Position numbers and translations under genes: made by a program. 22,854 nt of DNA from a virus (taxonomy: Duplodnaviria > Heunggongvirae > Uroviricota > Caudoviricetes). Of the stretch, positions 3,277-14,953 are shown piece by piece; the first letter of the stretch is position 1; each line of letters begins with the position of its first letter. The notes beneath the pieces were generated by a model, which had not been told where the DNA came from, ran no database searches, and saw nothing but the letters and a program-made list of their open reading frames with translations. The DNA lies in IMG/VR virus record IMGVR_UViG_644736359_000002; one strand, given 5' to 3'.

Positions 3277-3609
3277 ATGAACCCTTATATTTATCTTGGT
3301 GGTGCAATACTTGCAGAGGTCATTGGTACAACCTTAATGAAGTTTTCAGAAGGTTTTACACGGTTATGGCCATCTGTTGGTACAATTATTTGTTATTGTG
3401 CATCATTCTGGTTATTAGCTCAGACGCTGGCTTATATTCCTACAGGGATTGCTTATGGTATCTGGTCAGGAGTCGGTATTGTCCTGATTAGCTTACTGTT
3501 ATGGGGATTTTTCGGCCAACGGCTGGACCTGCCAGCCATTATAGGCATGATGTTGATTTGTGCCGGTGTGTTGGTTATTAATTTATTGTCACGAAGCACA
3601 CCACATTAA
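3277..3609 (+). CDS. emrE: Small multidrug resistance efflux transporter EmrE (110 aa)
   Basis: MNPYIYLGGAILAEVIGTTLMKFSEGFTRLWPS... recognised as EmrE (SMR family, four TM segments); the track ORF begins at an upstream TTG, the ATG at 3277 gives the canonical length. Confidence 0.93.
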   Translation: MNPYIYLGGAILAEVIGTTLMKFSEGFTRLWPSVGTIICYCASFWLLAQTLAYIPTGIAYGIWSGVGIVLISLLLWGFFGQRLDLPAIIGMMLICAGVLVINLLSRSTPH

Positions 3610-3639
3610 AATAATTTGTTTCTAAACGACTAAAATATG

Positions 3640-3675
3640 GAGGCTCTTATATTTATATGAGCCTCGTTTTATGCT
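3640..3675 (+). terminator. Candidate intrinsic terminator downstream of emrE
   Basis: Inverted repeat GAGGCTC (3640-3646) / GAGCCTC (3659-3665) followed by GTTTTATGCTTTTTG. Confidence 0.5.
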
Positions 3676-3863
3676 TTTTGTTAATGTCTTTATTTTTTAT
3701 GTATTCTTTTGTGCTTTCAAGATTATGGCGTAAGAAAATTGCAATACGATTATTGTTGTATATTCAAGATAATGTGACCTTAATTGTCTTTTTAAATAAA
3801 AATTAAACAAAAATTATATCCCACCACTAAGGTTTATAAAAGCATACGTTAGCAGGTGTCACC

Positions 3864-5390
3864 ATGAAAAAAGCCATAGCATATATGCGATTTTCATCAC
3901 CAGGTCAGATGTCTGGCGACTCATTAAACCGACAGAGAAGACTTATTGCTGAATGGTTAAAGGTAAATAGTGATTATTATCTTGATACCATAACATATGA
4001 AGATTTAGGATTAAGTGCATTCAAAGGAAAGCATGCACAATCAGGAGCTTTTTCGGAATTTTTAGATGCTATAGAGCATGGTTATATATTGCCAGGAACT
4101 ACATTGTTAGTTGAAAGTCTGGACAGACTTTCAAGAGAAAAAGTCGGTGAAGCGATTGAACGTCTGAAATTGATTTTGAATCACGGTATTGATGTTATAA
4201 CTCTTTGCGACAATACAGTCTATAATATTGACTCTTTGAATGAGCCATATTCATTAATAAAAGCCATACTTATAGCACAAAGGGCAAATGAAGAAAGCGA
4301 GATAAAGTCAAGTCGGGTTAAATTATCATGGAAGAAAAAACGGCAGGATGCACTGGAATCAGGTACGATTATGACGGCGTCTTGTCCGAGATGGCTCTCC
4401 TTAGATGACAAAAGAACGGCTTTTGTTCCAGACCCCGACAGGGTGAAAACTATTGAGCTAATTTTTAAACTCAGGATGGAAAGGCGCTCATTGAATGCAA
4501 TAGCCAAGTATTTAAATGATCATGCTGTAAAGAATTTCTCAGGAAAAGAAAGTGCATGGGGACCTTCTGTAATTGAAAAATTATTAGCGAATAAAGCTCT
4601 GATAGGTATATGCGTACCTTCATATCGTGCAAGAGGGAAAGGGATAAGTGAAATCGCTGGCTATTATCCCAGAGTCATATCAGATGATTTGTTTTACGCT
4701 GTACAGGAAATTCGGTTGGCACCTTTTGGTATTAGCAATAGTAGCAAGAATCCTATGCTAATAAATCTACTTCGAACAGTTATGAAGTGTGAGGCTTGTG
4801 GTAATACCATGATTGTTCATGCGGTATCTGGAAGTTTGCATGGCTATTATGTTTGTCCGATGAGAAGATTACATCGATGTGACAGGCCATCAATAAAAAG
4901 AGATTTGGTTGATTATAATATCATTAATGAATTGCTTTTTAATTGTAGCAAAATTCAACCAGTTGAAAACAAGAAAGATGCTAATGAAACTTTAGAGTTA
5001 AAAATTATTGAGCTTCAGATGAAAATTAATAATTTAATCGTTGCATTGTCTGTCGCGCCTGAAGTTACCGCTATAGCAGAGAAAATAAGACTATTAGATA
5101 AGGAATTACGAAGGGCTTCGGTATCATTGAAAACTTTGAAGAGTAAAGGTGTAAATTCATTCAGTGATTTTTATGCTATTGACTTAACCAGTAAAAATGG
5201 ACGAGAGTTATGCCGTACACTTGCCTATAAAACATTCGAAAAAATCATAATTAATACGGATAATAAAACCTGTGATATCTATTTTATGAATGGCATTGTT
5301 TTTAAACACTATCCTTTAATGAAAGTAATATCCGCCCAGCAGGCGATAAGTGCTCTCAAATATATGGTTGATGGTGAGATTTATTTCTAA
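3864..5390 (+). CDS. ybcK: Large serine recombinase (resolvase-type N-terminal catalytic domain plus recombinase and zinc-ribbon-like regions), 508 aa
   Basis: N-terminus MKKAIAYMRFSSPGQ...SLNRQRR...LLVESLDRLSR matches the serine-recombinase catalytic motif (nucleophile Ser in RFSS); cysteine-rich segment CEACGN...YYVCP...HRCDRP; AGGTG RBS 5 nt before the ATG at 3864; AT-rich codon usage. Confidence 0.88.
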   Translation: MKKAIAYMRFSSPGQMSGDSLNRQRRLIAEWLKVNSDYYLDTITYEDLGLSAFKGKHAQSGAFSEFLDAIEHGYILPGTTLLVESLDRLSREKVGEAIERLKLILNHGIDVITLCDNTVYNIDSLNEPYSLIKAILIAQRANEESEIKSSRVKLSWKKKRQDALESGTIMTASCPRWLSLDDKRTAFVPDPDRVKTIELIFKLRMERRSLNAIAKYLNDHAVKNFSGKESAWGPSVIEKLLANKALIGICVPSYRARGKGISEIAGYYPRVISDDLFYAVQEIRLAPFGISNSSKNPMLINLLRTVMKCEACGNTMIVHAVSGSLHGYYVCPMRRLHRCDRPSIKRDLVDYNIINELLFNCSKIQPVENKKDANETLELKIIELQMKINNLIVALSVAPEVTAIAEKIRLLDKELRRASVSLKTLKSKGVNSFSDFYAIDLTSKNGRELCRTLAYKTFEKIIINTDNKTCDIYFMNGIVFKHYPLMKVISAQQAISALKYMVDGEIYF

Positions 5391-5588
5391 ATAATGATCT
5401 CGGATTTTAAGTTATGCTATGGTGATAAAGTGCAAGACAGAATTAATTATCTTTAACGAAACTTAATGGGTAATTACTTTGTTTGCTCCCACAAGCGAGT
5501 TTTGTACGGCTGTATTGGGGTAGTAAATGAGCTATACAATCTTAATCATTTGTTAGGTGAGAACTCTTGGTCGCAGATTCAAATACTG

Positions 5589-5638
5589 AAAATACGTGAC
5601 AAATTATTATGAGCAAAATGGTGTATGTCACGTATTTT
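5589..5638. promoter_or_regulatory. 50-bp palindromic site: perfect 13-bp inverted repeat AAAATACGTGACA / TGTCACGTATTTT separated by 24 bp
   Basis: Read directly: left arm 5589-5601, right arm 5626-5638; lies in the ybcK-ybcL intergenic region. Confidence 0.6.
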
Positions 5639-5854
5639 GAATGGTAGGTTAAAAAATAACACCGACTTTCGTAGGTATTACTAATAATAAAGCAGAGTTT
5701 TTAGATAGTATCAATGTGCTTTGTGTATATTGTGGCAAATAATTGGGTTGGGGGTACAATTGTGATTGCTTTTGCATGAACATTGCGCCTTTATGCATAA
5801 TGAGATAAAGGAATATCAAATAAAATAACGATAGGTCATAACAAAGAGGTTTTT

Positions 5855-6406
5855 ATGAAAACACTTATCGTTTCAACTGTATTGGCATTCATAACATTTT
5901 CTGCGCAGGCTGCAGCATTTCAGGTCACTAGTAATGAAATAAAAACAGGAGAGCAACTTACAACGTCTCATGTCTTTTCTGGATTTGGGTGTGAAGGTGG
6001 TAATACATCGCCCTCATTAACCTGGTCTGGTGTTCCTGAAGGTACCAAAAGCTTTGCCGTAACTGTATATGATCCAGATGCACCTACAGGCAGTGGTTGG
6101 TGGCATTGGACTGTTGTTAATATTCCAGCAACAGTAACATATTTGCCCGTTGATGCAGGGAGACGTGATGGAACAAAACTGCCGACTGGTGCTGTTCAAG
6201 GCCGAAATGATTTTGGCTATGCTGGGTTTGGTGGCGCATGTCCTCCTAAAGGAGATAAACCACATCATTACCAGTTTAAAGTATGGGCTCTAAAAACTGA
6301 AAAGATTCCTGTAGATTCTAACTCCAGCGGAGCGTTAGTTGGTTATATGCTTAATGCTAATAAAATCGCAACCGCTGAGATAACACCAGTTTATGAGATA
6401 AAGTAG
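5855..6406 (+). CDS. ybcL: Periplasmic PEBP/RKIP-family protein with signal peptide (183 aa)
   Basis: Signal peptide MKTLIVSTVLAFITFSAQA; PEBP-like motifs (DPDAP, GWWHW, PPKGDKPHHY); recalled as YbcL. Confidence 0.88.
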   Translation: MKTLIVSTVLAFITFSAQAAAFQVTSNEIKTGEQLTTSHVFSGFGCEGGNTSPSLTWSGVPEGTKSFAVTVYDPDAPTGSGWWHWTVVNIPATVTYLPVDAGRRDGTKLPTGAVQGRNDFGYAGFGGACPPKGDKPHHYQFKVWALKTEKIPVDSNSSGALVGYMLNANKIATAEITPVYEIK

Positions 6407-6415
6407 GGTGAGAGT

Positions 6416-7213
6416 ATGCTGGCAAGAGGTAAGACTAACTTAAAGATCGAAGAAATACGGATGCATAAACATCATGAGATTCATAGGGTTAAGCCTCTTA
6501 TGCCAGCTTTGTGTCGTATCCGTCAGGGAAAGAAAGTTATCAATTGGGAGACGCATACTTTAACTGTTGATAATAATCAAATAATATTATTTCCTTGTGG
6601 TTATGAATTTTATATTGAGAATTATCCTGAAGCAGGGCTTTATCTTGCAGAAATGCTTTACTTACCCATTGATTTAATTGAGAGTTTCCAAAAACTTTAT
6701 ACGGTAACTGATCAAATACGTAACAAAACAAGTTTCTTTTTACCTCAGAATCCTGAGTTAATATATTGTTGGGAGCAACTAAAAACATCTGTTTCCCGAG
6801 GCTTCTCAACTAAAATTCAGGAGCACTTAGCAATGGGCGTTCTACTTTCGTTAGGAGTGAATCATGTTAATCATTTACTTTTATCATATAGTAAACAATC
6901 ATTGATAAGTCGTTGTTATAACCTGCTGCTATCCGAACCCGGCACAAAATGGACAGCAAACAAGGTTGCTCGATATCTCTACATTTCTGTTTCTACATTA
7001 CATCGCCGTCTAGCAAGCGAGGGGGTAAGTTTCCAAAGTATACTGGACGATGTGAGGTTAAATAATGCGTTGTCTGCTATACAAACGACGGTAAAACCTA
7101 TAAGCGAGATTGCCAGAGAAAATGGTTATAAGTGTCCTTCTCGTTTTACTGAAAGATTTCATAATCGTTTTAATATAACACCAAGAGAGATAAGAAAAGC
7201 TTCCAGAGAGTAA
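6416..7213 (+). CDS. ybcM: AraC/XylS-family transcriptional regulator (265 aa)
   Basis: C-terminal AraC-type HTH ([21 protein letters not shown]...[30 protein letters not shown]); starts 10 nt after ybcL stop with GGGTGAGAG RBS. Confidence 0.88.
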
Positions 7214-7277
7214 AAGTGTTTTAAGAAGGAGCAATTCTATCGATTTTGATTTTGGGAAATCAACACGGCATAATTAT

Positions 7278-7306
7278 GTCACCGGAGCCTGAACAACTCC
7301 GGTGAC
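7278..7306 (+). terminator. Perfect 10-bp stem hairpin downstream of ybcM (candidate terminator or island-boundary element)
   Basis: GTCACCGGAG (7278-7287) / CTCCGGTGAC (7297-7306), 9-nt loop; weak U-tract (TTCTGCGC), so terminator function is uncertain. Confidence 0.35.
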
Positions 7307-14200: not shown

Positions 14201-14377
14201 CGCGGGTTTTCGCTATTTATGAAAATTTTCCGGTTTAAGGCATTTCCGTTCTTCTTCGTCGTAACTTAATGTTTTTATTTAAAATACCCCCTGAAAAGAA
14301 AGGAAACGACAGGTGCTGAAAACGAGCTTTTGGGCCTCTGTCGTTTCCTTTCTCTGTTTTTGGCCGTGGAATGAACA

Positions 14378-14953
14378 ATGGAAGTCAACAAAAAGCAGCT
14401 GGCTGACATTTTCGGTGCGAGTATCCGTACCATTCAGAACTGGCAGGAACAGGGAATGCCCGTTCTGCGAGGCGGTGGCAAGGGTAATGAGGTGCTTTAT
14501 GACTCTGCCGCCGTTATAAGATGGTATGCCGAAAGGGATGCTGAAATTGAGAACGAAAAGCTGCGCCGGGAAGTTGAAGAACTGCGGCAGGCCAGCGAGA
14601 CAGATCTCCAGCCAGGGACTATTGAGTACGAACGCCATCGACTTACGCGTGCGCAGGCCGACGCACAGGAGCTGAAAAATGCCAGAGACTCCGCTGAAGT
14701 GGTGGAAACCGCATTCTGTACTTTCGTGCTGTCGCGGATCGCAGGTGAAATTGCCAGTATTCTCGACGGGATCCCCCTGTCGGTGCAGCGGCGTTTTCCG
14801 GAACTGGAAAACCGACATGTTGATTTCCTGAAACGGGATATCATCAAAGCCATGAACAAAGCAGCCGCGCTGGATGAACTGATACCCGAACACGGCACTG
14901 GTCGGCGTGCAGGTGGACTCGGAGCAGTTCGGCAGCCAGCAGGTGAGCCGTAA
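14378..14953 (+). CDS. nohD: Terminase small subunit Nu1 homologue with altered C-terminus (reads out of frame into J sequence after the deletion junction)
   Basis: [43 protein letters not shown]... recalled as near-identical to lambda Nu1 up to ...AAALDELIP; the final ~20 residues ([21 protein letters not shown]) are not Nu1-like. Confidence 0.8.

Follow-up and report, generated by a model that had tools for sequence, protein, structure and literature searches.

Results

A perfect inverted repeat lies between ybcK and ybcL

The window, by which we mean the whole 22,854-nt stretch of DNA analysed here (IMG/VR record IMGVR_UViG_644736359_000002), is a DLP12-type lambdoid prophage in which the genes follow the order ren, emrE, ylcJ (3657-3806), ybcK, a 464-bp intergenic region, ybcL, ybcM, ylcH, ybcN, ninE and onward. 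The plus-strand gene ybcK (3864-5390) encodes a large serine recombinase of 508 aa with the Resolvase, Recombinase and Zn-ribbon domains of Pfam, and ybcL (PEBP family, 5855-6406) and ybcM (AraC family, 6416-7213) form a plus-strand operon that spans 5855-7213. Within the intergenic region, the initial annotation had reported a perfect 13-bp inverted pair with a 24-bp spacer, and its coordinates proved exact: the left arm, AAAATACGTGACA (5589-5601), and the right arm, TGTCACGTATTTT (5626-5638), are complementary at 13 of 13 positions and enclose the 24-nt spacer AATTATTATGAGCAAAATGGTGTA (5602-5625), giving a span of 50 bp. Pairing stops at the arm ends, where G5588 stands opposite G5639. In the left arm, an A4 tract precedes the 9-nt core TACGTGACA, and in the right arm, a 9-nt core precedes a T4 tract. 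The placement between the two genes is also as claimed: 198 nt separate the ybcK stop (5390) from the left arm, and 216 nt separate the right arm from the ybcL ATG (5855). Over the repeat region, the window matches E. coli C and BL21-derived strains at 100% identity and K-12 at 99.6%; in K-12, the repeat occupies 570,627-570,676 of NC_000913.3, a position that bears no annotated feature.

A 48-aa open reading frame (5466-5612, plus strand) has its stop codon within the spacer of the repeat. It is entered as a hypothetical protein in the phages PhiR34_1, PhiR68_2 and PhiR70_1 and is absent from RefSeq/PGAP annotation; a Pfam search was empty, no ribosome-binding site is evident and homologues are lacking, and it is probably not a gene. 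Together with an alternative pairing between 5540-5558 and 5594-5612, this reading frame had suggested an attenuator, which was dropped both for the properties of the reading frame and because the global fold equals that of shuffled sequences.

We defined comparable repeats as perfect inverted repeats with arms of at least 13 bp and a spacer of 3-40 nt. None arose in 100 dinucleotide-preserving shuffles of the whole window or in 400 such shuffles of the AT-rich island at 3601-7250, and the earlier statement that a palindrome of this kind is unlikely by chance is therefore upheld by 0 of 500 shuffles. Our own analytic estimate is about 0.01 such repeats per window, which corresponds to roughly 2-3 by chance in a 4.6-Mb genome, so that a chance origin is unlikely at the scale of the window yet not negligible when many windows are scanned. 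Further copies of the arm were not found within the window, where the best other matches have two mismatches, as expected by chance. Within the window, only one further repeat falls into this class, a pair of 16-bp arms with a 25-bp spacer (14297-14312, AGAAAGGAAACGACAG, and 14338-14353, CTGTCGTTTCCTTTCT), which lies 25 bp upstream of an open reading frame for a Nu1-type terminase small subunit (14378-14953) and is kept in 87 lambdoid phage records. This pair corresponds to the R2/R1 binding pair for gpNu1 in lambda cosB. The two repeats are nearly identical in geometry, with perfect arms of 13 and 16 bp and spacers of 24 and 25 bp. However, the cosB pair stands at the packaging site beside the gene of its binder and is widely conserved, whereas the repeat at 5589-5638 is limited to one junction.

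The repeat is confined to the junction of ybcK with ybcL and ybcM

The 464-bp intergenic region is present in 677 of 5,426 complete E. coli genomes, almost always as a single copy and always on the chromosome, and also in three sequenced temperate phages (PhiR34_1, PhiR68_2 and PhiR70_1), each of which has its own tyrosine integrase. In IMG/VR, a scan for the exact pattern returned 40 contigs and a scan defined by the flanks returned 39 of those, all with the same flanks, spacer and orientation, and a search for the locus based on YbcL added one identical copy and one locus of the type B described below. Throughout, the spacer has a single orientation relative to the flanks. Diverged relatives of the repeat segment were absent from E. 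coli genomes and from phage and plasmid collections, where a distant blastn search returned the same locus only. The search for further copies in the genome and in related prophages that the initial annotation had proposed thus ended at one place per genome with identical flanks. A dispersed repeat, such as a REP element, a MITE or an IS end, was rejected because of this single place per genome and the constant flanks.

Comparison of the locus between genomes shows what surrounds this place. In the window (type A), emrE-ylcJ-ybcK is followed by a segment with the repeat (5463-5699) and then by ybcL-ybcM, and this segment occurs only where ybcK and ybcLM are joined. In type B, found in 2,628 genomes (for example L003, by fliE), emrE is followed by 168 bp and then by ybcL-ybcM and a porin gene, and the sequence corresponding to window 3617-5699 is missing. 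In type C (L004, L005 and L006), emrE-ylcJ-ybcK is present at 96-98% identity and leads into other cargo without the repeat; here, similarity to the window is lost by about position 5462 and picks up again near 7244, ahead of a conserved hairpin at 7278-7306. Across the collection, ybcK occupies about 1,523 places in 1,422 E. coli genomes, and the repeat segment is found at 674 of them. Since the repeat is present solely at the ybcK-ybcLM junction, it is an obligate part of neither gene.

The segment varies very little. The 281 bp around the repeat are at least 98.9% identical across all 674 genomes that carry the segment. Among 83 full-length copies, 17 of the 464 positions are variable and none of these falls in the 50-nt repeat, where about 1.8 would be expected (P(0) about 0.14); the left arm is invariant in all 83 copies fetched and in MG1655. 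Because the 674 E. coli and about 41 IMG/VR copies are at least 98.9% identical, they carry no signal of covariation or constraint by which comparison could decide on a structure.

Directly past ybcK, lambdoid prophages contain a variable cargo slot that extends in the window from about 5462 to about 7244. It holds ybcL-ybcM here, nothing in O157:H7 DEC4E, an alpha/beta hydrolase gene in AVS0750, and IS2 with a P22AR-C-domain gene in IR53017. The left borders of the slot lie within about 10 bp of one another, after ATTAAYTATC(YTGAACGAAGC), and the right border is common to all, before the hairpin at 7278-7306. This conserved, G+C-rich hairpin of 10 bp (GTCACCGGAG...CTCCGGTGAC) shortly precedes ylcH/ybcN and recurs in every prophage arrangement that carries ybcK; in L004, the scan called it as a minus-strand terminator.

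Relative to the emrE-ybcL loci, the indel at 3617-5699 could be read as a 2.08-kb insertion and hence as a mobile ylcJ-ybcK-repeat element. This candidate was rejected, since no attP-like symmetry can be rebuilt from the ends of the indel and since type C loci have ybcK in common with the window but lack the right-hand 240 bp. The ybcK-less emrE-ybcLM-porin locus would fit better as a deletion remnant, the DLP12 order being kept. In L003 and the 2,628 genomes, emrE, ybcL, ybcM and an ompD/nmpC-like porin gene are found by fliE and yedK without ylcJ-ybcK and without the genes from ylcH to quuD, an arrangement suggestive of an old deletion in a DLP12-like prophage whose remnant is now fixed in about half of E. 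coli genomes. Although L003 (CP088875.1) is labelled as a plasmid, this 393-kb record contains flagellar and yed genes and probably represents a chromosome fragment. The right arm with its flank also seemed to resemble the 3' end of emrE (TGTCACG ... TTAAAAAATAA), a likeness that was put down to chance, as the intervening 12 and 16 nt are unrelated.

The repeat folds as a discrete RNA hairpin with terminator-like features

In its predicted RNA, the repeat folds at -17.0 kcal/mol on the plus strand (z -4.9) and at -14.0 kcal/mol on the minus strand (z -5.8), where the 24-nt loop stays open. Only on the plus strand, which is the sense strand of ybcK, does an inner helix of 6 bp with three G-U pairs form in the spacer and reduce the terminal loop to 7 nt. 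The surrounding 330 nt fold no better than shuffles (z -0.15 and -0.96), and the hairpin therefore represents a discrete local element. Its stem is built of an A4 tract, a 9-bp core with four G-C pairs and a T4 tract, and reaches 13 bp when the A-U pairs are included. Past the G+C-containing core, the plus-strand tail (TTTTGAAT) and the minus-strand tail (TTTTCAGT) both contain 5 T in 8, of which only four are consecutive, a marginal number.

A simple terminator scan left the site at 5589-5638 uncalled; the T run that it looks for is found on both strands, and only the loop is outside its bounds, with 24 nt where at most 8 are allowed. Set beside intrinsic terminators, the repeat has a G+C-containing stem of at least 5 bp and a 3' U-rich tract and lacks a loop of 3-8 nt. 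Rfam covariance models returned only chance-level matches, with E values above 1 and scores far below the gathering scores. The hairpin lies about 95 nt ahead of the -35 element of the ybcLM promoter, and this position downstream of ybcK and ahead of the promoter fits a terminator. In the sister arrangement L005, a canonical plus-strand terminator is found 324 nt past the same ybcK gene, which is a comparable position.

A second hairpin adjoins the repeat. On the minus strand at 5651-5682, 17 bp to the right of the repeat, an 11-bp stem (5655-5682) with a GAAA loop precedes a U run (-9.8 kcal/mol, z -2.2). This structure is more canonical than the repeat and was missed by the simple scan because the stem has an internal mismatch. 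This terminator-like hairpin would halt leftward transcripts from the ybcL promoter region. Taken together, the repeat and the hairpin at 5651-5682 suggest a transcript boundary, with its elements back to back, between the ybcK and ybcLM units.

Published work shows that Rho and NusG repress transcription of ybcK in its leader and that H-NS binds the region. This repression would account for the silence of 3'-end maps at the repeat: in the supplementary tables searched from two E. coli 3'-end studies (PMC7815308 and PMC10687069), no RNA 3' end was found within 5705xx-5707xx, which is weak evidence against a terminator in a gene that is barely transcribed.

The YbcM footprint and the ybcLM promoter lie downstream of the repeat

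The initial annotation had also offered the repeat as an operator for YbcM, a proposal that published binding data contradict. Among the 12 ChIP-exo sites of YbcM reported by Gao et al., 2021 (PMC8464067), the strongest, at 570015-570048 with a signal/noise of 357, has ybcL as its nearest gene (supplementary file 5). The numbering was fixed by a csrB site at 2922190-2922219, which suits NC_000913.2 only, csrB being located at 2,924,156-2,924,524 in NC_000913.3, and by the start of ybcL, which is 570,893 in NC_000913.3 and 570,116 in the older numbering. From these coordinates, the YbcM footprint (570015-570048 in NC_000913.2) corresponds to window 5754-5787, which is 68-101 bp upstream of the ybcL ATG and 116 bp downstream of the repeat. 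It overlaps the -10 element of the ybcLM promoter (GTGGCA-17-TACAAT, 5732-5760, plus strand), which was located by genomic SELEX with RNA polymerase holoenzyme (PMC3946193). In addition, a peak of the RpoS holoenzyme at 570042 in NC_000913.2 (PMC5493296) corresponds to window 5781. Around the repeat itself, at 5697xx-5699xx (NC_000913.2), the ChIP-exo data contain no site for any of 34 candidate transcription factors (PMC8464067).

Other regulators were considered and set aside. Although TGTCAC occurs in the arms, PhoB requires direct repeats and its published site lies inside ybcK, and a Pho box at the repeat was rejected. The PhoB ChIP-seq site, TGTCACATCGATGTAATC (569907, NC_000913.3; PMC10294691), maps to window positions of about 4868-4885 on the minus strand and is thus an intragenic Pho box. 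A published sigma-54 site maps to emrE and not to the repeat. Finally, a minus-strand sigma-70-like match, GTGACA-17-AATAAT (5603-5631), which agrees with the consensus at 10 of 12 positions, is contained within the repeat.

The repeat does not consistently accompany ybcK

Judged by its sequence, YbcK looks catalytically competent. Its translation retains the motifs Y-M-R-F-S-S and D-R-L-S-R, which we take to be the catalytic nucleophile and arginine motifs by the numbering of gamma-delta resolvase. A phmmer search with YbcK found nothing among all PDB chain sequences at an E of 0.001 or lower, despite the three domains clearly recognised by Pfam; the protein is remote from every structurally solved serine integrase.

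Attachment sites of the phiC31 type, as far as geometry goes, have a comparable 50-bp span with outer dyad symmetry. Like the attP sites of large serine recombinases (phiC31, Bxb1, A118), the repeat measures about 50 bp, has symmetric outer half-sites and is located near a recombinase gene. In contrast to these attP sites, its inner 12-nt halves are symmetric at only 3 of 12 positions, its geometric centre, G5613/C5614, is a palindromic GC, and it is not co-inherited with ybcK. Attachment-site features are hence present as far as a 40-50-bp extent with dyad symmetry is concerned, and are absent in inner symmetry, in travelling together with the recombinase and in recombination products. Specifically, attB, attL or attR forms of the repeat were not found in 5,426 E. 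coli genomes; the repeat occurs once per genome and is never split in an attL- or attR-like manner, duplicated or inverted in its spacer in the loci examined. Moreover, the ends of the 3617-5699 indel are symmetric at 4 of 25 positions and give no attP-like dyad.

The repeat is also absent from more than half of the places where ybcK is found. In L004-L006, where ybcK is 96-98% identical, it is missing and no substitute repeat occurs within 800 bp downstream or 500 bp upstream. Nor does it accompany homologues of 50-60% identity in L009, L053, L056 and L057 (Atlantibacter, Yersinia and Kluyvera), whose loci contain no comparable repeat; only the Yersinia locus has an upstream repeat, unrelated and matching at 12 of 13 positions. 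The initial annotation had named absence of the site from other ybcK-carrying elements as evidence against its proposal, and such absence is what we observe.

Discussion

Our analyses establish that the inverted repeat was correctly observed and is non-random, and that two of the three roles originally proposed for it, those of a YbcK site and a YbcM operator, fail the available tests, whereas an RNA hairpin survives on account of its stable local fold and the A and U tracts at the base of its stem. We tentatively favour, at somewhat less than even odds, a boundary element between cargo genes, either a terminator of non-canonical, long-loop form or a 3'-end hairpin, in which termination or stabilisation of RNA would be the function. 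The element would then be an intrinsic-terminator-like hairpin, built to work in both directions, in the spacer DNA that separates two independently expressed units of prophage cargo. Transcription of ybcK would yield a plus-strand RNA that folds into an interrupted stem-loop of 13 bp and 6 bp ending in UAUUUU, and this hairpin could cause partial termination or block 3' exonucleases ahead of the ybcLM promoter, which is autoregulated by YbcM, while the adjacent minus-strand hairpin and its U run may serve leftward transcripts in the same manner. Such an arrangement resembles the bidirectional intrinsic (Rho-independent) terminators at the boundaries of prophage cargo genes (morons), with which the repeat shares an A tract, a G+C-containing stem and a U tract, a position downstream of one gene and upstream of an independently promoted unit, and an adjoining hairpin on the opposite strand. 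It differs from typical intrinsic terminators in its loop of 24 nt instead of 3-8 nt, in having four G-C pairs only and in having only four consecutive U. The lambda tI/sib hairpin, which lies downstream of int and mediates retroregulation through RNase III, may offer a second parallel in general terms, as the repeat would likewise form a long interrupted RNA stem (13 + 6 bp) a few hundred nucleotides past a recombinase gene of a lambdoid phage and would be contained in transcripts of this gene. However, the repeat has neither sequence similarity to tI/sib nor an adjacent att site.

Against termination, the loop is far beyond the usual length, the U tract is short and the stem is rich in A and U, and perfect Watson-Crick symmetry is equally expected of a site recognised as DNA or of a recent template switch. 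The latter leads to an account that we regard as nearly as likely as a terminator or 3'-end hairpin, and in absolute terms as possible but doubtful, namely that the palindrome has no function and is a product of chance or mutation, for example a quasi-palindrome perfected by template switching, in young, AT-rich junction DNA silenced by H-NS. The confinement of segment 5463-5699 to a single, nearly clonal, lineage-specific junction leaves selective maintenance unsupported, and the repeat is evidently dispensable, as ybcLM is kept without it in 2,628 genomes and more than half of the ybcK copies lack it. In addition, the published datasets consulted place neither a protein nor an RNA end on the repeat, and 2-3 repeats of its kind are expected by chance per genome by our analytic figure. 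A functionless origin is nevertheless at odds with the failure of any of the 500 shuffles, at window or island scale, to match the repeat, and with the A4/T4 tracts at the base of the stem and the adjoining minus-strand terminator-like hairpin, neither of which would be expected of a random palindrome.

Readings in which the repeat acts as DNA are less probable. Recognition by a dimeric or tetrameric protein of host or phage other than YbcM or YbcK, with one subunit on each 13-bp arm, is unlikely, even though perfect Watson-Crick symmetry is a requirement of recognition at the DNA level and the gpNu1 R2/R1 pair at 14297-14353 illustrates that proteins use such geometry: no such protein is known, no second copy of the arm exceeds chance in the window or in the phage genome fetched, none of the 34 factors tested by ChIP-exo is found at the repeat, and a centre-to-centre spacing of 37 bp would put the arms on opposite faces of the helix. 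Quite unlikely, in our judgement, is a cognate site of YbcK, whether an intact site of attP type that came with a captured integration module or one lone site with a res-like or autoregulatory role. The 50-bp span with outer dyad symmetry, the location 198 bp past the 3' end of ybcK and the presence of all three large-serine-recombinase domains with their catalytic motifs speak for it. Geometry and proximity are however the sole support for this claim of the initial annotation. The repeat is missing from most ybcK copies (present at just 674 of about 1,523 places), the inner halves lack the expected symmetry and the centre an asymmetric core, recombined forms are absent, and the phages that carry the repeat integrate via their own tyrosine integrase. 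We likewise see only a slim chance that the repeat is a single cognate site of YbcK, for res-like recombination, multimer resolution or autoregulation, or a docking site for the acquisition of ybcLM as cargo; if this were true, ybcK and its site would constitute a previously unrecognised cargo-handling module of lambdoid phages. Very unlikely is a minus-strand sigma-70 promoter formed by the right arm and spacer (GTGACA-17-AATAAT) that would produce an RNA antisense to the 3' end of ybcK. The 10/12 consensus match and a terminator-like site on the minus strand at 5346-5332, which would delimit an RNA of about 260 nt, are in keeping with such a promoter, but the region contains four promoter-like matches where shuffles predict 2.8 plus or minus 1.8, the left arm and the symmetry are left unexplained, and the RNA polymerase peak in genomic SELEX is the ybcL promoter and not the repeat. 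We consider it extremely improbable that the repeat is an operator or distal looping site of YbcM. It does lie upstream of ybcLM, with its centre about 157 bp (about 15 helical turns) from the YbcM site, a distance that would suit AraC-style looping; yet the strongest genomic YbcM site is at 5754-5787 and PMC8464067 gives no second peak at the repeat, the arms are unlike the footprint in sequence, AraC-family proteins usually bind direct repeats, and type B loci retain ybcLM, its promoter and the footprint region without the repeat.

A specialist would find none of these readings surprising except that of a YbcK site, which the evidence disfavours. At most, the repeat contributes a single boundary hairpin, so far without annotation, to the DLP12 prophage of E. 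coli K-12, B and C. The negative outcome is nonetheless useful, as the nearest palindrome is probably not the substrate of YbcK, a widespread orphan serine recombinase; moreover, the YbcM operator is now placed precisely relative to the repeat. For the evolution of prophages, the cargo slot past ybcK and the ybcK-less emrE-ybcLM-porin remnant are of more interest than the palindrome.

YbcK homologues also occur outside the DLP12 context. At 56-60% identity they are found as stand-alone cargo in other prophages (L056, 4673-8249; L009; L053). L009 and L056 have the gene in the nin region of Atlantibacter-type prophages; in one such region it is accompanied by KGG and DinI genes and flanked by an 81-aa DUF1367 fragment on one side and a full 198-aa DUF1367 gene on the other. 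In Yersinia enterocolitica (L053), the homologue is part of a P2-like prophage, between an autotransporter gene and ogr/gpD. Kluyvera (L057) carries a further homologue at 50-60% identity.
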